Shown: in pieces, positions 1 through 64,000 of the stretch | How positions within the stretch are numbered: the stretch's first letter is position 1 | How the letters are laid out: each line of letters begins with the position of its first letter | Assembly: GCA_964016885.1 (NCBI GenBank) | Contig: OZ024743.1 | Location: forward strand, 251,286,001-251,350,000 | Length of the DNA stretch: 64,000 nucleotides | Source: Eledone cirrhosa | Taxonomy: Eukaryota | Direction of reading: 5' to 3' | Translations under genes and position numbers: made by a program | Notes under the pieces: generated by a model | Seen by the model: the letters and a program-made list of their open reading frames with translations, nothing else | Databases searched by the model: none | What the model was told of the DNA's origin: nothing

Positions 1-3000
1 TTTGATGGAACTAGTGATGTTGGTGATGTTGATGTTGCTGTTGTGGTTTGATGGAACTAGTGATGTTGATGATGTTGATGTTGATGTTGTGGTTTGATGG
101 CACTAGTGATGTTGGTGATGTTGATGTTGCTGATGTGGTTTGATGGAACTAGTTATGTTGGTGATGTTGATGTTGCTGTTGTGGTTTGATGGAACTAGTG
201 ATGTTGGTGATGTTGATGTTGCTGATGTGGTTTGATGGCACTAGTGATGTTGTTGATGTTGATGTTGCTGATGATAGTGATGGCACTAGTGATGTTGGTG
301 ATGTTGATGTTGCTGTTGTGGTTTGATGGAACTAGTGATGTTGGTGATGTTGATGTTGCTGTTGTGGTTTGATGGAACTAGTGATGTTGATGATGTTGAT
401 GTTGCTGATGATAGTGATGGCACTAGTGATGTTGGTGATGTTGATGTTGCTGTTGTGGTTTGATGGAACTAGTGATGTTGGTGATGTTGATGTTGTGGTT
501 TGATGGAACTAGTGATGTTGGTGATGTTGATGTTGTGGTTTGATGGAACTAGTGATGTTGGTGATGTTGATGTTGCTGATGTGGTTTGATGGCACTAGTG
601 ATGTTGTTGATGTTGATGTTGCTGATATGGTTTGATGGAACTAGTGATGTTGGTGATGTTGCTGATGTGGTTTGATGGAACTAGTGATGTTGTTGATGTT
701 GATGTTGCTGATGTGGTTTGATGGAACTAGTGATGTTGGTGATGTTGATGTTGTGGTTTGATGGAACTAGTGATGTTGGTGATGTTGATGTTGTTGATGT
801 GGTTTGATGGCACTAGTGATGTTGTTGATGTTGATGTTGTTGATGTGGTTTGATGGCACTAGTGATGTTGGTGATGTTGATGTTGTTGATGTGGTTTGAT
901 GGCACTAGTGATGTTGTTGATGTTGCTGTTGTGGTTTGATGGAACTAGTGATGTTGGTGATGTTGATGTTGCTGATGTGGTTTGATGGAACTAGTGATGT
1001 TGGTGATGTTGATGTTGTGGTTTGATGGAACTAGTGATGTTGGTGATGATGATGTTGTTGATGTGGTTTGATGGCACTAGTGATGTTGTTGATGTTGCTG
1101 TTGTGGTTTGATGGAACTAGTGATGTTGGTGATGTTGATGTTGCTGATGTGGTTTGATGGAACTAGTGATGTTGGTGATGTTGATGTTGTGGTTTGATGG
1201 AACTAGTGATGTTGGTGATGTTGATGTTGTTGATGTGGTTTGGTGGCACTAGTGATGTTGTTGATGTTGCTGTTGTGGTTTGATGGAACTAGTGATGTTG
1301 GTGATGTTGATGTTGCTGATGTGGTTTGATGGAACTAGTGATGTTGGTGATGTTGATGTTGTGGTTTGATGGAACTAGTGATGTTGGTGATGTTGATGTT
1401 GTTGATGTGGTTTGATGGCACTAGTGATGTTGTTGATGTTGATGTTGCTGATGTGGTTTGATGGAACTAGTGATGTTGGTGATGTTGATGTTGCTGATGT
1501 GGTTTGATGGAACTAGTGATGTTGGTGATGTTGATGTTGTTGATGTGGTTTGATGGCACTAGTGATGTTGTTGATGTTGATGTTGCTGTTGTGGTTTGAT
1601 GGCACTAGTGATGTTGGTGATGTTGCTGATGTGGTTTGATGGAACTAGTGATGTTGGTGATGTTGATGTTGTTGATGTGGTTTGATGGCACTAGTGATGT
1701 TGTTGATGTTGATGTTGCTGTTGTGGTTTGATGGCACTAGTGATGTTGATGATGTTGATGTTGTGGTTCGATGGCACTAGTGATGTTGGTGATGTTGATG
1801 TTGCTGATGTGGTTTGATGGAACTAGTGATGTTGATGATGTTGATGTTGCTGATGTGGTTTGATGGAACTAGTGATGTTGGTGATGTTGCTGATGTGGTT
1901 TGATGGCACTAGTGATGTTGTTGATGTTGCTGATGTGGTTTGATGGCACTAGTGATGTTGATGATGTTGATGTTGTGGTTCGATGGCACTAGTGATGTTG
2001 GTGATGTTGATGTTGCTGATGTGGTTTGATGGAACTAGTGATGTTGATGATGTTGATGTTGCTGATGTGGTTTGATGGAACTAGTGATGTTGGTGATGTT
2101 GCTGATGTGGTTTGATGGAACTAGTGATGTTGGTGATGTTGTTGATGTGGTTTGATGGCACTAGTGATGTTGTTGATGTTGATGTTGCTGTTGTGGTTTG
2201 ATGGCACTAGTGATGTTGATGATGTTGATGTTGTGGTTCGATGGCACTAGTGATGTTGGTGATGTTGATGTTGCTGATGTGGTTTGATGGAACTAGTGAT
2301 GTTGTTGATGTTGATGTTGCTGTTGTGGTTTGATGGAACTAGTGATGTTGGTGATGTTGCTGATGTGGTTTGATGGAACTAGTGATGTTGGTGATGTTGA
2401 TGTTGCTGTTGTGGTTTGATGGAACTAGTGATGTTGGTGATGTTGATGTTGCTGATGTGGTTTGATGGAACTAGTGATGTTGGTGATGTTCATGTTGCTG
2501 TTGTGGTTTGATGGAACTAGTGATGTTGGTGATGTTGATGTTGCTGATGTGGTTTGATGGAACTAGTGATATTGGTGATGTTGATGTTGCTGATGTGGTT
2601 TGATGGCACTAGTGATGTTGTTGATGTTGATGTTGCTGTTGTGGTTTGATGGAACTAGTGATGTTGGTGATGTTGCTGATGTGGTTTGATGGAACTAGTG
2701 ATGTTGGTGATGTTGATGTTGCTGATGTGGTTTGATGGCACTAGTGATGTTGATGATGTTGATGTTGCTGTTGTGGTTTGATGGAACTAGTGATGTTGGT
2801 GATGTTGCTGATGTGGTTTGATGGAACTAGTGATGTTGGTGATGTTGATGTTGCTGTTGTGGTTTGATGGAACTAGTGATGTTGGTGATGTTGATGTTGC
2901 TGTTGTGGTTTGATGGCACTAGTGATGTTGGTGATGTTGATGTTGCTGTTGTGGTTTGATGGAACTAGTGATGTTGGTGATGTTGCTGATGTGGTTTGAT

Positions 3001-6000
3001 GGAACTAGTGATGTTGGTGATGTTGATGTTGCTGATGTGGTTTGATGGAACTAGTGATGTTGGTGATGTTGCTGTTGTGGTTTGATGGAACTAGTGATGT
3101 TGGTGATGTTGATGTTGCTGATGTGGTTTGATGGAACTAGTGATGTTGGTGATGTTGATGTTGCTGTTGTGGTTTGATGGAACTAGTGATGTTGGTGATG
3201 TTGCTGATGTGGTTTGATGGAACTAGTGATGTTGGTGATGTTGATGTTGCTGATGTGGTTTGATGGAACTAGTGATGTTGGTGATGTTGCTGATGTGGTT
3301 TGATGGAACTAGTGATGTTGGTGATGTTGATGTTGCTGATGTGGTTTGATGGAACTAGTGATGTTGGTGATGTTGATGTTGCTGATGTGGTTTGATGGAA
3401 CTAGTGATGTTGGTGATGTTGATGTTGCTGTTGTGGTTTGATGGAACTAGTGATGTTGGTGATGTTGATGTTGCTGATGTGGTTTGATGGAACTAGTGAT
3501 GTTGGTGATGTTGCTGATGTGGTTTGATGGAACTAGTGATGTTGGTGATGTTGATGTTGCTGATGTGGTTTGATGGAACTAGTGATGTTGGTGATGTTGC
3601 TGATGTGGTTTGATGGAACTAGTGATGTTGGTGATGTTGATGTTGCTGATGTGGTTTGATGGAACTAGTGATGTTGGTGATGTTGATGTTGTTGATGTGG
3701 TTTGATGGCACTAGTGATGTTGTTGATGTTGATGTTGCTGTTGTGGTTTGATGGCACTAGTGATGTTGATGATGTTGATGTTGTGGTTCGATGGCACTAG
3801 TGATGTTGGTGATGTTGATGTTGCTGATGTGGTTTGATGGAACTAGTGATGTTGATGATGTTGATGTTGCTGATGTGGTTTGATGGAACTAGTGATGTTG
3901 GTGATGTTGCTGATGTGGTTTGATGGCACTAGTGATGTTGTTGATGTTGCTGATGTGGTTTGATGGCACTAGTGATGTTGATGATGTTGATGTTGTGGTT
4001 CGATGGCACTAGTGATGTTGGTGATGTTGATGTTGCTGATGTGGTTTGATGGAACTAGTGATGTTGATGATGTTGATGTTGCTGATGTGGTTTGATGGAA
4101 CTAGTGATGTTGGTGATGTTGCTGATGTGGTTTGATGGAACTAGTGATGTTGGTGATGTTGTTGATGTGGTTTGATGGCACTAGTGATGTTGTTGATGTT
4201 GATGTTGCTGTTGTGGTTTGATGGCACTAGTGATGTTGATGATGTTGATGTTGTGGTTCGATGGCACTAGTGATGTTGGTGATGTTGATGTTGCTGATGT
4301 GGTTTGATGGAACTAGTGATGTTGTTGATGTTGATGTTGCTGTTGTGGTTTGATGGAACTAGTGATGTTGGTGATGTTGCTGATGTGGTTTGATGGAACT
4401 AGTGATGTTGGTGATGTTGATGTTGCTGTTGTGGTTTGATGGAACTAGTGATGTTGGTGATGTTGATGTTGCTGATGTGGTTTGATGGAACTAGTGATGT
4501 TGGTGATGTTGCTGATGTGGTTTGATGGAACTAGTGATGTTGGTGATGTTGATGTTGCTGTTGTGGTTTGATGGAACTAGTGATGTTGGTGATGTTGATG
4601 TTGCTGTTGTGGTTTGATGGCACTAGTGATGTTGGTGATGTTGATGTTGCTGTTGTGGTTTGATGGAACTAGTGATGTTGGTGATGTTGCTGATGTGGTT
4701 TGATGGAACTAGTGATGTTGGTGATGTTGATGTTGCTGATGTGGTTTGATGGAACTAGTGATGTTGGTGATGTTGCTGTTGTGGTTTGATGGAACTAGTG
4801 ATGTTGGTGATGTTGATGTTGCTGATGTGGTTTGATGGAACTAGTGATGTTGGTGATGTTGATGTTGCTGTTGTGGTTTGATGGAACTAGTGATGTTGGT
4901 GATGTTGCTGATGTGGTTTGATGGAACTAGTGATGTTGGTGATGTTGATGTTGCTGATGTGGTTTGATGGAACTAGTGATGTTGGTGATGTTGCTGATGT
5001 GGTTTGATGGAACTAGTGATGTTGGTGATGTTGATGTTGCTGATGTGGTTTGATGGAACTAGTGATGTTGGTGATGTTGATGTTGCTGATGTGGTTTGAT
5101 GGAACTAGTGATGTTGGTGATGTTGATGTTGCTGTTGTGGTTTGATGGAACTAGTGATGTTGGTGATGTTGATGTTGCTGATGTGGTTTGATGGAACTAG
5201 TGATGTTGGTGATGTTGCTGATGTGGTTTGATGGAACTAGTGATGTTGGTGATGTTGATGTTGCTGATGTGGTTTGATGGAACTAGTGATGTTGGTGATG
5301 TTGCTGATGTGGTTTGATGGAACTAGTGATGTTGGTGATGTTGATGTTGCTGATGTGGTTTGATGGAACTAGTGATGTTGGTGATGTTGATGTTGCTGAT
5401 GTGGTTTGATGGAACTAGTGATGTTGGTGATGTTGATGTTGCTGTTGTGGTTTGATGGAACTAGTGATGTTGGTGATGTTGATGTTGCTGATGTGGTTTG
5501 ATGGAACTAGTGATGTTGGTGATGTTGATGTTGCTGATGTGGTTTGATGGAACTAGTGATGTTGGTGATGTTGCTGATGTGGTTTGATGGAACTAGTGAT
5601 GTTGGTGATGTTGATGTTGCTGATGTGGTTTGATGGAACTAGTGATGTTGGTGATGTTGATGTTGCTGTTGTGGTTTGATGGCACTAGTGATGTTGGTGA
5701 TGTTGATGTTGCTGATGTGGTTTGATGGAACTAGTGATGTTGGTGATGTTGCTGATGTGGTTTGATGGAACTAGTGATGTTGGTGATGTTGATGTTGCTG
5801 ATGTGGTTTGATGGAACTAGTGATGTTGGTGATGTTGATGTTGCTGTTGTGGTTTGATGGAACTAGTGATGTTGGTGATGTTGCTGATGTGGTTTGATGG
5901 AACTAGTGATGTTGGTGATGTTGCTGATGTGGTTTGATGGAACTAGTGATGTTGGTGATGTTGATGTTGCTGATGTGGTTTGATGGAACTAGTGATGTTG

Positions 6001-7806
6001 GTGATGTTTATGTTGCTGATGTGGTTTGATAGAACTAGTGATGATGGTGATGTTGATGTTGCTGTTGTGGTTTGATGGAACTAGTGATGTTGGTGATGTT
6101 GATGTTGCTGATGTGGTTTGATGGAACTAGTGATGTTGGTGATGTTGATGTTGCTGATGTGGTTTGATGGAACTAGTGATGTTGGTGATGTTGCTGATGT
6201 GGTTTGATGGAACTAGTGATGTTGGTGATGTTGATGTTGCTGATGTGGTTTGATGGAACTAGTGATGTTGGTGATGTTGATGTTGCTGTTGTGGTTTGAT
6301 GGAACTAGTGATGTTGGTGATGTTGCTGATGTGGTTTGATGGAACTAGTGATGTTGGTGATGTTGATGTTGCTGATGTGGTTTGATGGAACTAGTGATGT
6401 TGGTGATGTTGATGTTGCTGTTGTGGTTTGATGGAACTAGTGATGTTGGTGATGTTGCTGATGTGGTTTGATGGAACTAGTGATGTTGGTGATGTTGCTG
6501 ATGTGGTTTGATGGAACTAGTGATGTTGGTGATGTTGATGTTGCTGATGTGGTTTGATGGAACTAGTGATGTTGGTGATGTTGATGTTGCTGATGTGGTT
6601 TGATGGAACTAGTGATGTTGGTGATGTTGATGTTGCTGTTGTGGTTTGATGGAACTAGTGATGTTGGTGATGTTGCTGATGTGGTTTGATGGAACTAGTG
6701 ATGTTGGTGATGTTGCTGATGTGGTTTGATGGAACTAGTGATGTTGGTGATGTTGATGTTGCTGATGTGGTTTGATGGAACTAGTGATGTTGGTGATGTT
6801 GATGTTGCTGATGTGGTTTGATGGAACTAGTGATGTTGGTGATGTTGATGTTGCTGTTGTGGTTTGATGGCACTAGTGATGTTGGTGATGTTGATGTTGC
6901 TGATGTGGTTTGATGGAACTAGTGATGTTGGTGATGTTGCTGATGTGGTTTGATGGAACTAGTGATGTTGGTGATGTTGCTGATGTGGTTTGATGGAACT
7001 AGTGATGTTGGTGATGTTGATGTTGCTGATGTGGTTTGATGGAACTAGTGATGTTGGTGATGTTGATGTTGCTGATGTGGTTTGATGGAACTAGTGATGT
7101 TGGTGATGTTGATGTTGCTGTTGTGGTTTGATGGAACTAGTGATGTTGGTGATGTTGATGTTGTGGTTTGATGGAACTAGTGATGTTGGTGATGTTGATG
7201 TTGCTGATGTGGTTTGATGGAACTAGTGATGTTGGTGATGTTGCTGATGTGGTTTGATGGAACTAGTGATGTTGGTGATGTTGATGTTGCTGATGTGGTT
7301 TGATGGAACTAGTGATGTTGATGATGTTGATGTTGCTGATGTGGTTTGATGGAACTAGTGATGTTGGTGATGTTGATGTTGCTGATGTGGTTTGATGGAA
7401 CTAGTGATGTTGGTGATGTTGATGTTGCTGATGTGGTTTGATGGAACTAGTGATGTTGGTGATGTTGATGTTGCTGATGTGGTTTGATGGAACTAGTGAT
7501 GTTGGTGATGTTGCTGATGTGGTTTGATGGAACTAGTGATATTGGTGATGTTGATGTTGCTGATGTGGTTTGATGGAACTAGTGATGTTGGTGATGTTGA
7601 TGTTGCTGATGTGGTTTGATGGAACTAGTGATGTTGGTGATGTTGATGTTGCTGATGTGGTTTGATGGAACTAGTGATGTTGGTGATGTTGCTGATGTGG
7701 TTTGATGGAACTAGTGATGTTGGTGATGTTGATGTTGCTGATGTGGTTTGATGGAACTAGTGATGTTGATGATGTTGATGTTACTGATGTGGTTTGATGG
7801 AACTAG
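1..7806. repeat. Tandem minisatellite, main unit GTGGTTTGATGG(A/C)ACTAGTGATGTTGGTGATGTTGATGTTGCTGAT (46 bp) with 40- and 37-bp deletion variants; runs off the left edge
   Basis: Direct reading. Every unit contains ACTAGT. The unit length is not a multiple of 3, and the ORF track has no long ORF here. Confidence 0.97.
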
Positions 7807-8252
7807 TCATGTTGCTGATTATGATAGTGATGTTGGTTATGATGGAGATGTTTGTTGTGATGTTGGTGATAATAGATGTTGTTGGTACTGGTGATATTGG
7901 CGATGTTGCTAATGTTGCTGAAATTGCTGTTGGTGTTGCTGCTGAGAACAATGCTGCAACATTTAATATTTGTAACGGCTTTAAACAGAAATGTAAGACC
8001 GTTCTTAATGTAATCATTCCACCTATTATGCAATGACTTTCAGTGTTCTCAATAGCACATTACAGTAAAGACAATAGTTTGAATTATTTCTGCTCCACAT
8101 TGAACCTATAGCCCTTTTACCTCCTCCTGCATACTCTACCCTCACAGTCTCAAATATTGACACTCCGATATTATATATATATATATATACAGAATATGCA
8201 CACACACACATAATCTCAAATACAGCCAGTCTGACATTATATATATATATAT

Positions 8253-8445
8253 AACGAAGGAATTGTGTGTGGTAAGGAACCAGATGGACCATAACGCACC
8301 AGAGTACTCAATACTTAGGGTAGTAGAGTGGGTAATAGGAAAAGGTATGACCCTGACGGCAGAACTCAAGCCGTTTCGACGGCTATTTATAGAAATAGCC
8401 GTCGAAACGGCTTGAGCTCTGCCGTCGGTGTCATAGCTTTTCCTA
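8253..8445 (-). mobile_element. Short fold-back element of the 16082-17932 family: palindrome 8336-8445 carrying the HHR 3' half, plus 3' tail 8253-8335 next to (TA)n
   Basis: 8253-8390 aligns with 16082-16200. The arms TAGGAAAAGGTATGACCC...GACGGCTATTT and AAATAGCCGTC...GTCATAGCTTTTCCTA are inverted. Contains GAAACGGC-loop-GCCGTC. Confidence 0.85.
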
Positions 8446-10376
8446 TCATCATCATCATCAGGTTTAGCGTCCGTGTTCCACGCTTGCATGGGTTTGGACG
8501 GGGGTTTTCCCACTTGAGGCAAGAGTGGTTGTCTTGCTCGCATAGGACTGTCTGGCGGGTTTTCTACAGTTGGATGCCCTTCCTAACACCAACCACATTT
8601 ACAGTGTGGGGCTGGGAGGTTTTTACCGTGTTGCCTACACGGCCACATTACAGCGTGGACTGTCTGGCGGGTTTTCTACAGCTGGATGCCCTTCCTAACA
8701 CCAACCACATTTACAGTGTGGGGCTGGGAGGTTTTTACCGTGTTGCACACACGGCCACATTTACAGCGTGGACTGTGTGTTTTTTGTCGTGACACCTACA
8801 CGATCTCATTTGTTTCGGCCTGGATGTTGTGGGACCAACATAACTTTACATTGAAAGGGGCGGTGTGGGTGGGGTGGAGGTGGTGGGACGGGGGTGTGTT
8901 TTGATAGAGATGCCTACTGACTGTAGTAGGTTTTTACTTTGTATTTAGGTAAGGCGGGTCTTCTCTATTACTGAGTACCGCCAAAGGTCTCGGTCCAGTG
9001 ACATTGTCTTGGAGAGGTGTAAGCGTGTGAGGTCGGAATTTATCAGCTCGTCCCATGTTTTTCTGGGTCTGCCTACTCCGTGGCTACCGTCTATCTTTAT
9101 TGCCCTGCACTTTGTTATACAGCTGTCGTCTTTCATGCGCATCACGTGACCGTACCAACATAGCCTTCTCTCGAGTAAACAACATCTGATCCCTCTTATT
9201 TCTAATTTTTTCCTTAGTTCGTTTATGCTTTTCCGTTCACGTATATTACTATTGCACATCCAGCGGAGCATGCAAGCTTCGTTCCTCTCTAGTCTGCGTA
9301 TATCCTCTGCACACAATGCCCAGGTCTCACTGCCATGCAGCATTGCTGTTCGTATGCAGGCATCGTATAACCTGCCTTTCATTTTTAGGGAGAACCCTCT
9401 AGCGGCTAATAGTGGTATAAGCTCTCTGAACTTTTTCCATCCAGTTCTGACTCTAGCTACTGTACTTTCAGAGCACCCTCCCCTACTGCTGATTTTGTCA
9501 CCCAGATAACGGAAGCTGTCCACTATTTCTATAGAACCCTCTGCGCAGTTGAAGGAGCTAGTATTTGTGGGCACTTGCTGCTACTTATTGCACTAGAGCA
9601 CCGGCCACATGTAAAATCTATGTTCTTAGTTAGCTTACCTGTGATCCCACTACATCTTTTATGCACCCATACTTTGCATTTGGGACATAAAATGGAGTTT
9701 CTACCTACGCCTTTCCTACACACTGAGCATGGCCATTTCCCAGATGGGACCGCCGCCTTATTTTCTTTCCTACAAACTAGAACTTTAGTCTTAGCCAGGT
9801 TAATTTTAAGGCCTTTTGATTCTAGGCCGTGCTTCCATGTTTGGAATTTCTTCTCTAGTTCGGTCATTGATTCAGCTATGAGCGTTAGATCATCTGCGTA
9901 TAGGAGTTCCCATGGGCAGCCGGTCTTGAACTCCTCTGTTATAGCCTGAAGGGCAATAATAAATAGTAGGGAGCTAAGAACAGAGCCCTGATGGACACCA
10001 ACTTTTACGCTAAACTCTTCACTATATTCGTTGTTAATTCTAACCTTACTGACTGTTTTTTTATACATGGCTTGTATAGCTCTCACAAGCCATTCGTCAA
10101 CACCTAGTTTTCTAAGAGACCACCAGATAATGGAACGGGGGACTCTGTCGAAGGCTTTCTCCAAGTCGACGAAAGCTAAGTATAGGGGTTTACTTTTAGC
10201 TAGGTACTTCTCCTGTAGTTGTCGTACAATGAAAAGAGCGTCTGTGGTACTTTTGCCTGACACAAACCCGAACTGCATTTCATCTAGATCAATTCTCTCT
10301 CTGATTAGTTGCGCTATTACTTTTTCCGTGACCTTCATGACCTGGTCGATTAATTTAATGCCTCTATAGTTACTCC
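8446..10376 (-). mobile_element. 5'-truncated RTE-clade LINE with (GAT)n tail and a 112-bp tandem duplication in the 3' UTR (units starting at 8545 and 8657)
   Basis: Nearly identical to the 3' part of the 21922-24938 copy. RT motifs are present. Confidence 0.95.
8945..10376 (-). pseudogene. Frameshifted RTE reverse transcriptase (ORFs 9529-10389 and 8945-9574)
   Basis: Motifs NYRGIKL, QFGF, FVDLEKAFD, GVHQGSVLS, LLYADD and YLG. One frameshift near 9570 relative to the longer copy. Confidence 0.93.
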
Positions 10377-10474
10377 ATATTACTAGCAACTGGAAAGACC
10401 GATGGAAACATTGTTTCCTCGGTCCGATTTGCGAAAGTCGATCGATTTAAAAAAAAAAAAATATATATATATAT

Positions 10475-10740: not shown

Positions 10741-10745
<5 letters not shown>

Positions 10746-11028
10746 TTATTAAAAGCAACAAAAGACTGCACTGAAAACCTTCTTTAAAATGTTAATTCCG
10801 TAGGAATATACAGATTTCAATGGCACTTTCAATGGGATATTGAAATATGTATATTTTTGCAGGATTTAATTTTAAAGAAAGATTCCAGTCCAGCCTTCTG
10901 TTTTTTTTAATGAATATTTAATTCCATTTCTGCACCAGCTGCAGGATACCACATCTATGGTGGATGATTTACATAACATTGAGTGCTTTAATTTACTCCA
11001 TCGTTTACTAACCAGAATCACCAGTTCT
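10741..11028 (+). mobile_element. Degenerate fold-back element next to (TA)n: palindrome ~10741-10918 centred near 10826, with an HHR-like 3' half (GAAATATGTATA) and a tail containing GAGTGCT
   Basis: TTCTTTAAAAT...GAATATACAGATTTCAAT is inverted to ATTGAAATATGTATATTTTTG...ATTTTAAAGAA, with mismatches. GAGTGCT at 10981. Confidence 0.6.
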
Positions 11029-11394: not shown

Positions 11395-11760
11395 AGGTGT
11401 TAAGGTGTAAATTAATTGTATTCATAGGTGGTATGCCGAATGAGCACTCAATGTTCATGGGGAGTATCAATAGTATTAATATATAAAGGAACAAAGAATC
11501 AGAGTTGCATCATATAGATATCTAATTACATATTACATATGTTTCACTGTCGATCAGTTCGAGGAGCGACCTATTAATGATCGAACCTGACTCTGGAATC
11601 TGAAGCTCCTCAGATATGTTTTAACATGTAGACTCACAGCTACAGGTTCAATCATGAATTGATCGTTCCTCGAGCTGATGGACAGTGAAACATATGTAAT
11701 ATGTAATTAAATATGTATATGATGCAACTCTGATTCTTTGTTCCTTTATATGTTAATACT
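11395..11760 (-). mobile_element. Fold-back element: palindrome 11472-11760 with HHR 3' half (GAAAC ATAT GTA), plus 3' tail 11395-11471 next to (TA)n
   Basis: About 125-bp inverted arms, from AGTATTAATATATAAAGGAACAAAG to CTTTGTTCCTTTATATGTTAATACT. Microsatellites lie on both sides. Confidence 0.8.
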
Positions 11761-12914: not shown

Positions 12915-12985
<71 letters not shown>

Positions 12986-13036
12986 GGAAAGTAAGAAATC
13001 GGAGAATAGACCGTTAAAACATGTTTATTTAAAACA

Positions 13037-13078
13037 GCACCTACGTACGTTTCGCCCAGTTGGGCTTCTCAAGGGCAT
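13037..13078 (-). ncRNA. Minimal type I hammerhead ribozyme, U3-A8 core variant
   Basis: Minus strand reads GCCC-UUGAGAA-GCCC AACU GGGC-GAAA-CGUACG-UA-GGUGC, with palindromic helix III ACGUACGU. Confidence 0.75.
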
Positions 13079-13447
13079 AAATAATCAAAAGTGTTCCTTA
13101 CATTGCTCGGAAAGAGTTTTTGGGGTTAAATCACGTCAAGGTTCATTGCTCGCAAAAATAGCTTGTTTTGATTTTGCAGCAGGTCAAGGGAGGTAACTCT
13201 GGCCGGTGTTAGGGCAGTCTTTCCCGGACAAATTTTTTTTTATCTGCTACGAGATGAGGTTACAACCTTACCATTGTCGATACGCATGTAATCAACGCTT
13301 ATTTTGAGAGTTTTTTTTTGCCGCATCTGTTTGTCTGAGTCGTTTGAGGCTGGGTCTGGTATGCAAGGATTGTTTCCTGGGTGTTATTTTGCAGCGCTTG
13401 CTCTCCGGGGTGTTAAGACTTGTTGCAGGGAGATCCGGTGCACGGTT

Positions 13448-13991
13448 TCACTCCTCATCCTTAACCCATCTGAAGAAGGATATTTTTAAGCGATGTGTAC
13501 AACTTATCGCTGTTTCAGCTTTGCTGTTGATGAGCTCGTGGGGTGCAGTTATGATGTGGTAGAGCTCCACGAGGCAAAGATCGCATTTCCTCTTGAAGTT
13601 GTACGGTGCAGCCCTGCCGACAATCTCCCAGTGCGTGGAGAAGCTGGTGTTTAAGTCCTTTAGTGATGTAATATAGTCCACGAGCGAAGTGGAGTGCCTT
13701 AGTTTTCTATTTGTGAAAGAGTGGAGATGTGTTCGAAACCTAATTTTGAACGGGCTGGAGGTAGCCCCTATATAATGTTTAACGATATTGTGGCTAGTAA
13801 TAGTGCATCTATATATAACCCTATCAGTCAAGCAGTATCCTCTAAGGGGGCAGCGTCCTCTGTCGCGGCAGTTGCAATTTCCGTCGCGGTTCCGTCTATT
13901 TCCCACGGTAAGGCTATCATTGTTGCTGCCTACGTTGTTACCTACGCTACCGCAGCTGTCGTTAGCACCATTACAACCAACAGCACGCGGC
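13448..13991 (-). CDS. Penelope-like GIY-YIG endonuclease, C-terminal part of the PLE ORF (apparently intact arm; RT part missing)
   Basis: CNCRDRGRCPLRGYC (CxCx5C), VIY...YIG, FKIRFRTHLHSF, WEIV, KCDLCLVE, INSKAE..SCTH. Confidence 0.88.
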
Positions 13992-14086
13992 AACGGCATC
14001 CGCAGACGCAACCAGCATAACCGCGAAATGACTGGGGAACATGCAGGACATGACGTGCGGAATAACATGGCGTGCGGAATACCACC

Positions 14087-14630
14087 CCGCGTGCTGTGGG
14101 TTGTAATGGTGCTAACGACAGCTGCGGTAGCGTAGGCAACAACGTAGGCAGCAACAATGATAGCCTTACGGTGGAAAATAGACGGAACCGCGACGGAAAT
14201 TTCAACTGCCGCGACAGAGGACGCTTCCCCCTTAGAGGATACTGCTTGTCTGATAGGGTTATATATAGATGCACTATTACTAGCCACAATATCGTTAAAC
14301 ATTATATAGGGGCTATCTCCGGCCCGTTCAAAATTATATTTCGAACACATCTCCACTCTTTCACAAATAGAAAACTAAGGCACTCCACTTCGCTCGCGGA
14401 GTACATCACATCACTAAAGGACTTAAACATCAGCTTCTCCACGCACTGGGAGATTGTCGGCAGGGCTGCACCGTACAACTTCAAGAGGAAATGCGATCGT
14501 TGCCTCATGGAGCTCTACCACATCATAACTGCACCCCCACGAGCTCATCAACAGCAGAGCTGAAACAGCGATAAGTTGTACACATCGCTTAAAAATATCC
14601 TTCTTCAGATGGGTTAAGGATGAAGAGTGA
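14087..14630 (+). pseudogene. Second, mutated copy of the GIY-YIG domain (Cys-to-Phe changes and a frameshift near 14535)
   Basis: ORF 14072-14563 reads FNCRDRGRFPL and FKIIF. An extra base in the C-run shifts the frame. Confidence 0.85.
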
Positions 14631-14964
14631 AACCGTGCACCGGATCTCCCTGCAACAAGTCTTAACACCCCAGCGAGCAGGAAACAATCCTTGCATACCA
14701 GACCCAGACAAACAGATGCGGCAAAAAAAACTCTCAAAATAAGCGTTGATTACATGCGTATCGACAATGGTAAGGTTGTAACCTCATCTCGTAGCAGATA
14801 AAAAAAAGATTTGTCCGGGAAAGACTGCCCTAACACCGGCCAGAGTTACCTCCCTTGACCTGCTGCAAATTCAAAACAAGGTATTTTTGCGAGCAATGAA
14901 CATTGACGTTGATTTAACCCCCAAAACTCTTTCCGAGCAATGTAAGGAACACTTTTGATTATTT

Positions 14965-15006
14965 ATGCTCTTGAGAAGCCCAACTGGGCGAAACGAACGT
15001 AGGTGC
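14965..15006 (+). ncRNA. Minimal type I hammerhead ribozyme, U3-A8 variant (mirror copy with two substitutions)
   Basis: GCTC-TTGAGAA-GCCCAACTGGGC-GAAA-CGAACG-TA-GGTGC. Confidence 0.68.
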
Positions 15007-15221
15007 TGTTTTAAATAAACATGTTTTAACGGTCTATTCTCCGATTTCTTACTTTCCCACGTGTTTACGCTCTGCTAACTCTCTAGCCCACTAAATATTA
15101 ACACTTCCAATATTTAATACTGCCGGCACTAGTATCGAGCACCTTTGGCATACGCTACTTGGTAAATAACTATATGTATCACCTATCCTCCCCTTTTTTT
15201 CTGTCTCTCGATACGTAAATA

Positions 15222-16060: not shown

Positions 16061-16081
16061 TATATATATATATATATATAA

Positions 16082-17932
16082 TGAAGGAATTGTGATAAGG
16101 AACCAGATGGACCATAACGCACCAGAGTAATCAATACTTTGGGTAATAGGAAAAAGTATGACCCCGACGGCAGAGCTCAAGCCGTTTCGACGGCCATTTC
16201 TGGACTAAATTAGAATTTTTAGCCTGGTGAATAAATAGCCGAACTTGTCAATGGGTACTTCCTTATATGGGAAGATTGTAGTTGTCGAGAGGATTGGTCA
16301 AAATTTGTTGTAAACACAAATAAGTCTATCATGGCATTTGGTGGGAGGTAGGGGTGGATGAACTTGCCTGTAGAACAATGAGGGAGTGAGTGGAGCCGGT
16401 CAAGCATTGAAAGTGATATGTATACAGCAGATTCTAAGGATAGTGTATGAAAAGTCGAAAAATTGTTCTGGAGAAAATGGAGGAGGGAAGTTATAGAATG
16501 GGTAATTCGAATGAGAGTAAAAGACAATAAAAAATAATAGAAAGAAATCTAAAAAAAATATATAGTGAGAAATGAATAATAAAAAAAAAAAACTGGTAGG
16601 GTCTAGAAACAGCTGCTATGATTAGTAGGTGTTGCTTGTAAGGCCAAAGCTAAAGAAAAGGTTAATAAGTTGAGAATGGAAAATACTAAATAAGAAATTG
16701 TAGAAGTGGGTAGTGAAAATATATAAAGCAAACTTTTCAGGGGTCTAACACAGCTGCTAAAAATAGTTAGTAAAGCGTATTCCGCCAAATCTATCTTAAA
16801 ATTACAGGGGTGGGGGGTACTGAGTCTACAGAGGCCCGATGGGCTGCATCGGGGTAGGCGAAAGGGGAAAAACAGACAAGGAAGAAGATCAGGGGTGGAA
16901 GGAAGTGATAGGATGAGACAGAGGGAACAAGAAAACATAGAGGAAAAGAAAAAAAAAAAAGAAAAGAGGTACATCTATTCTTTTCCTCTATGTTTTCTTC
17001 TTCCCCCTGTCTCATCCTATCACTTCCTTCCACCCTTGATCTTCTTCCTCGTCTGTTTTTCCCCTTTCGCCTACCCCGATGCAGCCCATCAGGCCTCTGT
17101 AGCCTCAATACCCCCCACCCCTGTAATTTTAAGATAGAATTGGCCGAATAAGCTTTACTAACTATTTATAGCAGATGTGTTAGACCCCTGTAATTTTGAA
17201 TCATTTTTGTTACTACTCCATTTCTACAATTTCTATATATATATATATTTTTTCTATTCTCAACTTATTAACCTGTAATTGTAAGATAGCATTGGTGGAA
17301 TATGCTTTACTAACTATTTTTAGCAGCTGTGTTAGACCCCTGAAAAGTTTGCGTTATATTTTTTCACTACCCACTTCTACAATTTCTTATTTAGTATTTT
17401 CCATTCTCAACTTATTAACCTTTTCTTTAGCTTTGGCCTTACAAGCAACACCTACTAATCATAGCAGCTGTTTCTAGACCCTACCAGTTTTTTTTTTTAT
17501 TATTCATTTCTCACTATATATTTTTTTTAGATTTCTTTCTATTATTTTTTATTGTCTCTTACTCTCATTCGAATTACCCATTCTATAACTTCCCTCCTCC
17601 ATTTTCTCCAGAACAATTTTTCGACTTTTCATACACTATCCTTAGAATCTGCTGTATACATATCACTTTCAATGCTTGACCGGCTCCACTCACTCCCTCA
17701 TTGTTCTACAGGCAAGTTCATCCACCCCTACCTCCCATCAAATGCCATGATAGACTTATTTGTGTTTACAACAAATTTTGACCAATCCTCTTGACAACTA
17801 CAATCTTCCCATATAAGGAAGTACCCATTGACAAGTTCGGCTATTTATTCACCAGGCTAAAAATTCTAATTTAGTCCAGAAATAGCCGTCGAAACGGCTT
17901 GAACTCTGCCGTCGGGGTCATACGTTTTCCTA
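16082..17932 (-). mobile_element. Non-coding palindromic HHR element (pLTR-like): arms 16147-~16950 and ~16975-17932, 3' tail 16082-16146, flanked by (TA)n
   Basis: Near-perfect inverted arms. The right arm has an extra diverged ~150-bp tandem copy at 17120-17272. No credible ORF. Confidence 0.9.
17821..17920 (+). ncRNA. Type I hammerhead ribozyme, U3-A8 variant, long stem II (mirror copy at 16159-16258 on the minus strand)
   Basis: ACCCA-TTGACAA-GTTCGGCTATTT..AAATAGCCGTC-GAAACGGC..GCCGTC^GGGGT. Predicted cleavage after 17913. Confidence 0.75.
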
Positions 17933-18883
17933 TATATATATATATATAGAGAGAGAGAAAGAGAGAAAGAGAGAGAGATGCATGTTAGTATAAGTATAAA
18001 TATATTATCAGTAGAAAATGGCCACAGTTACATAAGACAAATAGCTGAGAGATAGTGTGAGAAAAAAGGAAAGATTGGAGGAGATGAGAATAGAATTGGG
18101 GGCACAGACGAAAAGATAAATAGAAGAAATTTGAGGAATTTGAGGAATTTAATCAACCCCAGTACTTATATAAAGAAATATAGTTTTATCAAAACAGGTG
18201 TAGATAGAGAGGGAGATACATTGAATTAGCCATTCCAACTCATATAGCTGACTGGGGGGGGGGGGGTTCTCTGTCTCAATAGTAGCAAGTACATAGTGGG
18301 GTTGGTGACCCAGTTCTGCTGGAATAAGTGTCACTGCATATCGATTCCCTGATGCCCATTATTCTACAAATCAGTCTAATAATCTAACTTCATTCAGTTG
18401 TTTAATTAAATCTCTTTAGATGGAGTAAGCTATGTGCAGTAGGTAAATGCATCCCACCCAGGAGAAGATGTCTCCCATTTAATGAATGTCACAAAACTTG
18501 GAGATAGAGACCAGCCCAGAGGAACAGAGACCATTATCATTCTAAACAATCTAAATTATCTAATGTCATTAGATCTTTTTGGATAAGGTAAGCTGCCTTC
18601 TGTAGGTGAATATATCCTATTCAGAGGAAGATCACCACCATTTTACATGGGTTGAAAGCTAAGCAGTTTTTGGATGACACCCACAACAATTGTATTATTA
18701 TCATGACATGCTAATCAACTGAATGGTATAAGAATTGGAGATAGATATCCACCCAGATGGAGTATTATATGTCAATGCTCACCTACTTTTCTTTTCAATG
18801 GTGCCCCTCCTCACATCAGATTTAGAAGACTTACAGTGATATGCTTGTTCCAAAACAGTGCCTTCGAATTATTGTAAATTAGA

Positions 18884-30502: not shown

Positions 30503-30546
<44 letters not shown>

Positions 30547-30554
<8 letters not shown>

Positions 30555-30965
30555 ATATTAACAAATGGAAACTATATTTATAAAACCATATTTATTTCAT
30601 TATACATATTTCAAGGGCCACCAGAGCAAACTATGGTGCACTTTCATCAGATAAAATATAATATAGGTTAGTTTTATAAATAAATATTGACATACCCAGG
30701 AGATTCCAACCAGAATGGTTGCATTTTTTAAGGGTATGTCAATATTTATTATAAAACTAACCTATATTATATTTTATCTGATGAAAGTGCACCATAGTTT
30801 GCTCTGGTGGCCCTTGAAATATGTATAATGAAATAAATATGGTTTTATAAATATAGTTTCCATTTGTTAATATATTGTATATTTACTCCAATAATGTGAG
30901 TGCTTTATATCAGTTATAAAAATATTTTGCTTGTTGTATCCCAACAAATTAAATATAACCTCTAC

Positions 30966-36343: not shown

Positions 36344-36894
36344 TTTTGAGTTTATGTTGGTTGTATACCAACACCTCAGTATGCAGGCTGGAGCACTCGA
36401 CGAAGTGCGCAGGTTGGTTGTATACCAACACCTCAGTATGCAGGCTGGAGCACTCGACGAAGTGCGCAGGTTGGTTTGGTTACTCCGGAGTAGTGTAAAA
36501 TAAAGTTAAATAAAAGTCAAATGATTAAAATTTAGCTTCGTTTATTACTGCTATATATATTTCAGTGACAGCCATCTTTGGCTGTGACCTCTTCAGGCAG
36601 TTTGAATTAGTATGGTATAGACAAGTACATATGTTGTTTAGGTGTATGATATTGTCAATACTCTGATATGCCCAGTTCCTTGTTGGGTTGTTCCCCAGTG
36701 AATTAACAACCCAACAAGGAACTGGGCATATCAGAGTATTGACAATATCATACACCTAAACAACATATGTACTTGTCTATACCATACTAATTCAAACTGC
36801 CTGAAGAGGTCACAGCCAAAGATGGCTGTCACTGAAATATATATAGCAGTAATAAACGAAGCTAAATTTTAATCATTTGACTTTTATTTAACTT

Positions 36895-36901
<7 letters not shown>
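36342..36901 (-). mobile_element. Fold-back HHR element: 197-bp arms 36496-36692 / 36705-36901 with a 12-nt spacer, and 3' tail 36342-36495 containing a 57-bp tandem duplication; (TA)n on both sides
   Basis: The arms appear identical on reading, and each contains a canonical HHR. Confidence 0.93.
36796..36850 (+). ncRNA. Canonical minimal type I hammerhead ribozyme (mirror copy at 36547-36601 on the minus strand)
   Basis: ACTGC-CTGAAGA-GGTCACAGCCA AAGA TGGCTGTCACT-GAAA-TATATA-TA^GCAGT. Predicted cleavage after 36845. Confidence 0.88.
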
Positions 36902-38870: not shown

Positions 38871-39937
38871 TATAATAATAGATGTAGAAATAAACCCAGT
38901 AAATTCTGTCTAAAATTACGAGGGTAGAGAAACCACAATTGTTTTATATATTTAACCTGAAACATACAGTAAGATATATAATTTTATATACAGACCATAT
39001 CAATAACCATTTCATCTCTCGGACAGATTAGAGATTTAATCTGTTTCGCCCTGAAAATTGTGTTTGTAACAGATAATCCGTAGGCTTTTCGTCAGCGAGA
39101 GATAAGATCAAATGAAACAAAACACATTTAACTACAACTCACAGGAGTAAATAATACACCTCGTGGGTTGCACACTATACGTTGTGAGAGTGGATATGCT
39201 AGAAATGATAGCCTTATTACACTCAACTTATAATCTCACCTAGTTAGGGAGCCGAAATACAAATAAAATACAGAGTTATTAACTCATATTGATACCCTGC
39301 AATTAACAAGCTCAAAGTATAAATACTGAGCATTATATAATAAAAAGCCAAACAGATTAAATCTCTAATCTGTCCGAGAGATGAAATGGTTATTGATATG
39401 GTCTGTATATAAAATTATATATCTTACTGTATGTTTCAGGTTAAATATATAAAACAATTGTGGTATTCTCTACCCTCGTAATTTTAGACACAGAATTTAC
39501 TGTGTTTATTTCTACATCTATTATTATATAATGCTCAGTATTTATACTTTGAGCTTGTTAATTGCAGGGTATCAATATGAGTTAATAACTCTGTATTTTA
39601 TTTATATTTCGGCTCCCTAGCTAGGTGAGCTTATAAGTTGAGTGTAATAAGGCTATCATTTCTAGCATATCCACTCTCACAACGTATAGTGTGCAACCCA
39701 CGAGGTGTATTATTTACTCTTGTGAGTTGTTGTTAACTGTGTTTTGTTTCATTTGATCTTATCTCTCGCTGACGAAAAGCCTACGGATTATCTGCTATAA
39801 ACACAATTATCAAGGCGAAACAGATTAAATCTCTAATCTGTCCGAGAGATGAAATGGTTATTGATATGGTCTGTATATAAAATTATATATCTTACTGTAT
39901 GTTTCAGGTTAAATATATAAAACAATTGGGGTATTCT
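38871..39937. mobile_element. Retrozyme-like locus: one full ~468-bp HHR monomer on minus (38871-39338) and ~1.25 tandem monomers on plus (39350-39937)
   Basis: AAACAGATTAAATCTCTAATCTGTCCGAGAG recurs at 39350 and 39818. The minus copy is exactly one period long. Confidence 0.88.
39761..39850 (+). ncRNA. Type I hammerhead ribozyme with 8-bp stems I and III (mirror copy at 39014-39103 on minus; 3' half at 39350-39382)
   Basis: ATCTCTCG-CTGACGA-AAA-GCCT..AGGC-GAAA-CAGATTA AATCTC TAATCTG-TC^CGAGAGAT. Confidence 0.88.
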
Positions 39938-63788: not shown

Positions 63789-63961
63789 TCAGAATGGATG
63801 CGGCAAAAGCATGTTAAACCATTACTCACTAGAGTGGGTAACATGAAAAATATTCAGGACCCCGATGGCTAAGCTCCAGCCGTTTCAACGGCTGCATCTG
63901 CTTGTACAGATCTAGCTGTTGAAATGGCTGGAGCTCAGCCATCGGGGTCCTGAATTTTTCA
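63789..63961 (-). mobile_element. Short fold-back element: palindrome 63844-63961 with HHR 3' half, 3' tail 63789-63843, (TA)n on both sides
   Basis: GAAATGGCTG GAGCT CAGCCATC^GGGGTCC is mirrored on both strands. Related to 8336-8445. Confidence 0.82.
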
Positions 63962-64000
63962 TATATATATATATATATAGGTACATGGCTTAGTGGTTAG

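Follow-up and report, generated by a model that had tools for sequence, protein, structure and literature searches.

The closest described relatives of the elements analyzed here are the Penelope-like elements of the Hydra clade that carry a C-terminal endonuclease (Craig et al., 2021; PMC8557442). Their reported architecture recurs at our locus: a unit of ~3 kb encoding a reverse transcriptase (RT) and then a GIY-YIG endonuclease, with RW[K/R] and DKT motifs, a CxCX5C linker, CxxC and CxH motifs but no CCHH, a canonical hammerhead, (TA)n targets, an inverted 5'-truncated copy and a one-sided tail. The PAc element of Anolis has been studied in vitro (Frangieh et al., 2024; PMC11167929), and resembles our elements in starting reverse transcription at two internal sites that bound the tail, in extending both target strands, and in having its ribozyme near the ORF start; it differs in belonging to the Poseidon clade and in its minimal, protein-assisted ribozyme, and the main account of it leaves the inverted arm unexplained and 5' ends unmapped. 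Head-to-head inverted repeats with a palindromic junction and a tail on one arm, as found here, have been described for Penelope, and self-priming was proposed as their origin (Arkhipova et al., 2013; PMC3846280). Published Penelope hammerheads share with ours the type I form, a long stem II, a short stem I, a U3:A8 core and occurrence in pairs on opposite strands (Cervera and de la Pena, 2014; PMC4209133). In a plant retrozyme the RNA start site lies upstream of the ribozyme cut, which clips the RNA (PMC12029980). The inverted architecture, tail, ribozyme and TA targeting of Penelope are already known; the origin of the inverted repeats and the role of the hammerhead are presented as open questions (PMC8557442, PMC11167929).

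We analyzed a stretch of 64,000 nucleotides (the window) from Eledone cirrhosa, whose genome of 3.0 Gb is rich in (TA)n. The family of the palindrome at 8336-8445, the 8336 family, has a tail of ~83 nt versus 30-40 in the Hydra clade, and adds a breakpoint hotspot, a mass of 60-143 nt stubs and a candidate start site inside the ribozyme, none of which figures in the core description of that clade (PMC8557442). Compared with PAc (PMC11167929), genomic junctions here point to two joined cDNAs, with a possible second pile-up at the cut site; counts in the 8336 family speak against the simple self-priming proposed earlier (PMC3846280); and, in contrast to the published hammerheads (PMC4209133), stem III is a stable hairpin of 4-5 bp, of monomer type, and most genomic copies are half ribozymes. 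In the literature surveyed we found no breakpoint pile-up inside a ribozyme, no junction statistics for two cDNAs and no start site that splits a ribozyme; the supplements may hold end pile-ups.

The thousands of natural junctions available here separate self-priming from two-sided priming. We suggest, with a probability of about 60%, that each stub consists of two separately primed cDNAs, end-joined head to head after both had run off the same RNA 5' end, located in loop II of the hammerhead. The process would resemble L1 twin priming, reportedly described by Ostertag and Kazazian in 2001, in which two primings from two target ends are said to leave joined, 5'-truncated ends; dual priming and joined 5'-truncated products are common to both. 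L1 arms do not normally duplicate each other, whereas in the present case the same 60 nt are often represented in both cDNAs, which yields a palindrome.

Palindromes of the window

All four palindromes named in a preliminary description of this DNA were recovered by self-comparison of the window, from which the arm identities below are taken. Element positions are counted from the G of the ribozyme GAAA (position 0), with minus values upstream.

8335-8446: palindrome of the 8336 stub, arm identity 91%
8253..8335, minus strand: Penelope 'tail' of the 8336 stub, about +43 to +125 from GAAA, on the left arm only
8336..8390, minus strand: left arm, a 5'-truncated element copy ending 11-13 nt 5' of GAAA
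8391..8446, plus strand: right arm, element -13 to +42
8393-8401, plus strand: stem II 3' strand
8404-8407, plus strand: GAAA, followed by stem III
8426, plus strand: base after which the cut is predicted
8427-8430, plus strand: stem I 3' strand
63790..63962: stub of a sister subfamily; palindrome 63843-63962, arm identity 84%; tail 63790-63843; both arms end ~14 nt 5' of GAAA
11396..11760: palindrome of a different family; 11472-11760, arm identity 83%; tail on the left; left arm ends ~90 nt 5' of GAAA
11607-11613, minus strand: core of a complete minimal hammerhead in the left arm of the 11472 palindrome
10743..11010: palindrome of a third family, old; 10743-10916, arm identity 75%; the two arms stop 7-8 nt 5' of GAAA; a right-hand tail begins at 10917, with its outer end placed approximately
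12983..15060: fourth family, used as control; a long palindrome that includes a GIY-YIG endonuclease end, its two outer ends each bearing a complete minimal hammerhead
16080..17933: insertion of the 8336 family forming a long palindrome; tail 16080-16145; arms 16146-16808 and 17272-17933

The stretch 8336-8445 is predicted to fold as a single hairpin of -88 kcal/mol (z = -17.7 versus shuffles). This palindrome and that at 63844 contain just a half ribozyme, consisting of GAAA, stem III, the cut site and the 3' strand of stem I, and their symmetry centres lie 13-14 nt 5' of GAAA. The 10741 palindrome, its structure taken from its parent, likewise holds halves alone. The earlier statement that only this half is mirrored is correct for these three palindromes and fails for the one at 11472, where the left arm carries a complete ribozyme and the right arm alone stops within loop II. 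Overlooked in that description was the unmirrored Penelope 'tail' on one side of every palindrome (8253-8335, 63790-63843, ~11396-11471 and from 10917 onwards). In the 8336 stub the outer end of the tail adjoins a (TA)n run, and the right arm stops at the +42 start site of reverse transcription. Position 8389 is likely a C-to-A change, with C at that base in most related contigs.

Self-comparison of the window also gave longer palindromes at 30543-30885, 36496-36901 and 38928-39937; these are TA-flanked, have arm identities of 94-98% and probably represent other Penelope-like families. The 8336 stub is inserted into the edge of a LINE-like RT fragment (8446-10400, minus strand) with a (CAT)n tail, which we take to be RTE-like, and positions 1-8000 of the window are occupied by a minisatellite, GT-rich and strongly strand-skewed, in which 46- and 40-nt units alternate.

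Element family and parent ribozyme

An autonomous Penelope-like element carrying a type I hammerhead gave rise to the 8336 hairpin, which is one of its stub insertions. The element is a tandem-forming unit of ~3.1 kb with the ribozyme at its start, and four copies (L135, L136, L139 and L147) span the tandem junction. A sequence walk upstream of full copies passes ~700 nt of non-coding sequence and then reaches the GIY-YIG endonuclease and RT frame. In translation this is one ORF, with a YRDD-type RT core followed by a C-terminal GIY-YIG domain with an IYQC...AYIG core, and the first methionine of the long frame lies ~210 nt past GAAA. Inspection by eye gave the Hydra-clade marks RWR (not RWK), DKT and a CxCX5C linker without CCHH, and, by comparison with the published clade (PMC8557442), CxxC and CxH near the protein end; in Pfam none of three protein pieces scored above cut-off, and the domain calls are made from motifs. 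Tandem pLTRs, an inverted 5'-truncated copy, a one-sided tail and a (TA)n target complete the architecture, and by motifs and architecture the family probably belongs to the Hydra clade. Copies have two fixed 3' ends, at +42 and +125 from GAAA, and the stretch between them is the Penelope tail, which in vitro is flanked by two internal sites at which reverse transcription starts (PMC11167929).

Two other assignments were rejected. The Neptune clade requires a CX2-5CxxC linker and CCHH, whereas this protein has CxCX5C and a single cysteine inside its GIY-YIG core. Non-LTR retrozymes are defined as tandem units with complete type I hammerheads (10.64898/2026.07.22.740005), whereas the stubs are dispersed and inverted and carry half ribozymes. 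Three of the copies (L136, L139 and L147) have a second frame without a methionine, open for ~125 codons from -16 in loop II through the tail and overlapping the start of the main ORF.

The segment 17821-17920, earlier put forward as the parent of the 8336 hairpin, does belong to the same family and contains a full type I hammerhead, its stem II formed by CGGCTATTT/AAATAGCCG; it is not a source copy, and sits in the right arm of another palindrome of 1.8 kb (16146-17933), both arms of which contain the full ribozyme.

17824..17917, plus strand: full type I hammerhead (predicted fold)
17828-17834, plus strand: core TTGACAA (U3:A8 variant), preceded by the stem I 5' strand
17838-17846 with 17880-17888, plus strand: stem II (9 bp)
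17847-17879, plus strand: loop II (33 nt)
17891, plus strand: GAAA
17913, plus strand: base after which the cut is predicted

Predicted folds of 17824-17917 contain the 3:8 pair, GAAA, an NUH triplet and stems I-III that characterize type I hammerheads; stem I is short and G/C, stem III has 4-5 bp and the triplet is GUC. The U3:A8 core, a published hammerhead variant (PMC4209133), occurs in 63 of 66 full copies of the family. An Rfam search of the window gave no hammerhead match at E <= 1, returning microsatellite and hairpin look-alikes only. For the 8336 family, the earlier recognition of half-hammerheads of retroelement origin was correct.

Arm ends cluster beside stem II

An exact 23-mer from stem III has 21,410 matches in the genome. 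Head-to-head pairs of an 11-mer number 8,425 at gaps of 0-30 and 11,139 at gaps of 31-61, giving 19,564 pairs within 61 nt, versus 702 across the next 31 nt (gaps of 62-92); the 8336 family has about 20,000 stub hairpins in the genome. To place the arm ends we used 86 unselected arms, the first 23-mer matches taken without regard to structure (30 given loci plus exact matches in 40 regions, leaving out the last 14 of the 100 matches listed). In this set 66 arms end at -11 to -21, which places them within the 3' strand of stem II or in the loop next to it, with the others at -10 or less (7), at -22 to -39 (7) and at -40 or beyond (6). Some arms extend a few templated bases beyond -18, giving the cluster a soft edge. 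By eye, ends in the sister subfamily of 63844, a set chosen by similarity, are similarly placed. Single, unmirrored stubs also occur, with 849 TA-flanked matches beginning at -18. Ribozyme screens would miss most copies of such families, because ~9/10 of arms are halves.

Breakpoints of the 8336 family are clustered next to stem II, as the preliminary description supposed; the tie to stem II extends to the sister subfamily of 63844 and not to the 11472, 10741 and 12983 families.

A predicted RNA start site in loop II

17842..17878, plus strand: predicted core promoter in stem-loop II
17842-17848, plus strand: TATA-like heptamer
17871-17876, plus strand: initiator-like hexamer (-20 to -15), with the predicted +1 at 17873

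We infer an RNA start site in loop II at -18. The A at this position (17873), 18 nt before GAAA, is the upper edge of the breakpoint cluster. It lies within a hexamer (-20 to -15) that we take, from consensus motifs, to resemble an initiator, and the heptamer upstream is presumably TATA-like. The hexamer is present in all subfamilies seen, while loop II varies, and the heptamer starts 31 nt upstream of -18 in the main subfamilies; the subfamily of L040 and L309 is without the heptamer, yet its arms end at the same position. A further point in favour of a start site is that ends in the 11472 family pile up upstream of the whole ribozyme. Start sites within the pLTR are reported for Penelope (PMC2377424) and Chlamys-3 (PMC8557442).

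We propose that insertion of a stub into a (TA)n run would proceed as follows. The enzyme would cut both target strands, and one cDNA would be primed at each internal start site, on the same RNA or a sister RNA; in vitro, both strands are extended by a Penelope-like enzyme, whose two internal start sites flank the tail (PMC11167929). Both cDNAs would run off the 5' end of the element RNA, predicted to begin inside loop II, and their ends would then be joined head to head, making the symmetry centre the mere meeting place of two cDNA ends. An RNA from -18 primed at +42 and +125 would give cDNAs of 60 and 143 nt, matching most arms; because the start sites lie just 60 and 143 nt from the RNA 5' end, most events would leave stubs. 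RNA made from the promoter would contain only the 3' half of the ribozyme and would not cut itself, whereas read-through RNA would contain the whole ribozyme and could cut. If the start site is true, a promoter that splits the ribozyme would be a simple switch, making self-cleavage dependent on read-through. More tentatively, and at somewhat less than even odds, the full picture may hold: a promoter inside the element's own hammerhead, a half-ribozyme mRNA, self-cleavage by read-through RNA only, ~20,000 stubs as a fossil map of the start site, inverted repeats as two joined cDNAs, and a smaller class at the cut site that records cleavage in vivo. The family singles out two testable positions: the start predicted 18 nt ahead of GAAA and the cut predicted 23 nt beyond it.

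A cap-derived extra G could in principle mark such a start (PMC2831318, PMC9341517). Among the first 100 of 849 matches listed, the extra base after TA runs was by eye G in 15, C in 2 and A in 1. Genome-wide, the base before -18 is G in 148 matches versus C in 20, against a background after TA runs of 2164:390 (p = 0.28); control starts at -13 are preceded by an extra G too (9 among the first 100 of 301 matches listed, by eye), and target duplication could account for 11 of 28 fetched extra-G cases. The base within palindromes was C in 87, G in 6 and T in 7 among 100 listed (by eye), compared with C in 77 and T in 23 among the first 100 of 199 matches listed for a control at -14; untemplated C on cDNA ends was seen 57 times at -18 and 38 times at -12, versus 5 T (by eye). 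We do not count the cap-G signature as support for the start site: the G excess is that of the TA-run background and is not site-specific, and the within-palindrome signal is cancelled by its control.

The main rival to a start site is that both cDNAs stop where the RT stalls, at structure or bound protein in loop II, on an RNA that does not end there; the candidates are, above all, a weak distal hairpin, or else contact between loops I and II when the ribozyme is folded. We consider this rather unlikely. The 3' strand of the predicted distal hairpin (-21 to -15) covers the breakpoint zone, similar hairpins fold in most subfamily copies, the ends are scattered over about ten bases, and the extra-base signatures fail to single out -18, all as a stall would have it. 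Yet that hairpin is weak and A/U-rich, and the enzyme would have passed the stronger stems III and II, with only 7 of 86 ends at -10 or less; in one sister-subfamily copy (L185) the predicted fold leaves the hexamer unpaired, while sister-subfamily arms end equally far out; and families with other long stem-loops II have no such stop.

A template that ends or is blocked in loop II because of RNA processing there, at a 3' splice site or a branch point, has a still smaller probability. The conserved hexamer also reads as what we take, from splice consensus, to be a pyrimidine-AG acceptor, and two subfamilies have a presumably branch-like A at -22; the latter is absent from the sister subfamily. 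Penelope elements carry introns in the 5' UTR, and an intron end overlaps the ribozyme in D. virilis (PMC4209133). Against splicing, none of 118 near-site arm ends is joined to upstream sense sequence at a donor site: the search, over 1,570 nt and missing exons of <14 nt, gave two matches, neither of them a splice joint.

Junctions between the two arms

Junctions were read in 115 palindromes, the first listed loci of contig C1, comprising 60 regions from the pairs with gaps of 0-30 and 31-61 plus other regions of the family. Filler is present in 45 and 20 are blunt; arms are often unequal, joined by filler or entirely unmirrored. Of 69 junction partners, 14 stop short of GAAA and mirror nothing of stem II, and in four loci (L131, L145, L157 and L158) a short antisense arm is joined to a sense arm starting at +674 to +856. 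Unmirrored joints of similar kind occur in short-read contigs from one independent sample.

This heterogeneity rules out that the short palindrome is a separate, MITE-like non-autonomous element, or an assembly artefact, spread as a unit, a reading to which we give very little credence: such a unit would fit with copies being so numerous and with one junction (gap 30, 21/115) being modal, but junction sequence and length vary between copies inside each subfamily, TA flanks and a one-sided tail fit Penelope insertions, and related joints are present in independent contigs. The commonest junction, gap 30, corresponds to two cDNA ends overlapping symmetrically by 6 nt through a GGAC pair with tandem G-A mismatches, which were repaired in more than one way.

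Least probable of all is the model of the preliminary description, in which one cDNA snaps back or switches template at the stem II hairpin and copies itself; in that form it is refuted. Symmetry centres do adjoin stem II in the 8336 family, and self-priming has been proposed for inverted Penelope junctions (PMC3846280), but the expected product, an intact loop II between perfect arms, is essentially absent, with one genome match, at a complex joint, versus 19,564 short pairs, and none among 114 fetched palindromes. In one subfamily a single base distinguishes the two native strands of stem II, as 2 full copies show; there, the left side is the complement of the stem II 3' strand in 43 of 43 palindromes and never the native 5' strand. 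A self-copy never exceeds its template, and the tail is therefore expected on the longer arm; exactly one arm is tailed in 112 of 115 palindromes, and the tailed arm is the longer in 46, the shorter in 44 and equal in 22 (arm extents of 25 in this set are an alignment artefact of true 18-nt ends, and the longer-arm call is unchanged in most rows). Loop-free perfect centres and unmirrored joints exist, and three other families lack clustering at stem II.

Both arms are of the same subfamily in 66 of 68 typed pairs, compared with 23% expected under free template choice, which indicates a single RNA, or a single source, for both cDNAs; self-copying predicts this equally. Some junctions may possibly have arisen by fold-back of a cDNA that had run off the RNA end, followed by annealing to the second cDNA. 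One locus (L193) has arms from two subfamilies and is likely a two-template event. In two others (L036 and L108) the antisense arms skip GAAA and stem III between two direct 6-mer repeats flanking them.

Possible ribozyme cleavage

Among the first 100 of 525 matches listed, inspection by eye gave 57 distinct loci with tailed arms beginning near the predicted cut. In 26 of these the arm directly abuts TA: 10 have their first base at +23, immediately past the predicted cut, 5 at +24/+25, none at +21/+22 and 11 across +12 to +20. The +23 excess has P about 3e-6 against a flat null of 15 positions, or 2e-4 without two ambiguous cases, and a target-derived G can turn +24 into +23. These starts are suggestive of a record of ribozyme cleavage; a stall at stem III is a possible alternative. 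Frangieh et al. (PMC11167929) detected no RNA ends at the cut of the ribozyme they studied.

The earlier suggestion that half-ribozymes serve as substrates cleaved in trans is predicted to be unworkable for palindromic RNA, in which the half is locked in the -88 kcal/mol hairpin. Co-folding of the missing half with palindromic RNA gave no pairing, and with a single stub gave stem II pairing only, without an active fold; on these models, trans-cleavage of palindromes is unlikely.

Other families of the window

Full-length, ribozyme-bearing parents exist for the 11472 and 10741 families; their absence would have refuted the preliminary description. In counts that miss any stub beginning 3' of the query motif, the share of ends located in stem-loop II is 6 of 30 for the 11472 family (21/30 lie at -76 to -102, upstream of the whole ribozyme core), 3 of 11 for the 10741 family (8/11 keep the core) and 0 of 30 for the 12983 family. 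The link to stem II does not hold for families in general.

The palindrome at 12983-15060, 2 kb long, represents a second Hydra-like family, with a CxCX5C linker, a GIY-YIG end and U3:A8 hammerheads with a palindromic stem III; among its 747 exact motif matches genome-wide we saw no short-stub class. In one 11472-family copy (L254) the end cluster is preceded, 28-30 nt upstream, by a TATA-like octamer that is degenerate in three other copies.
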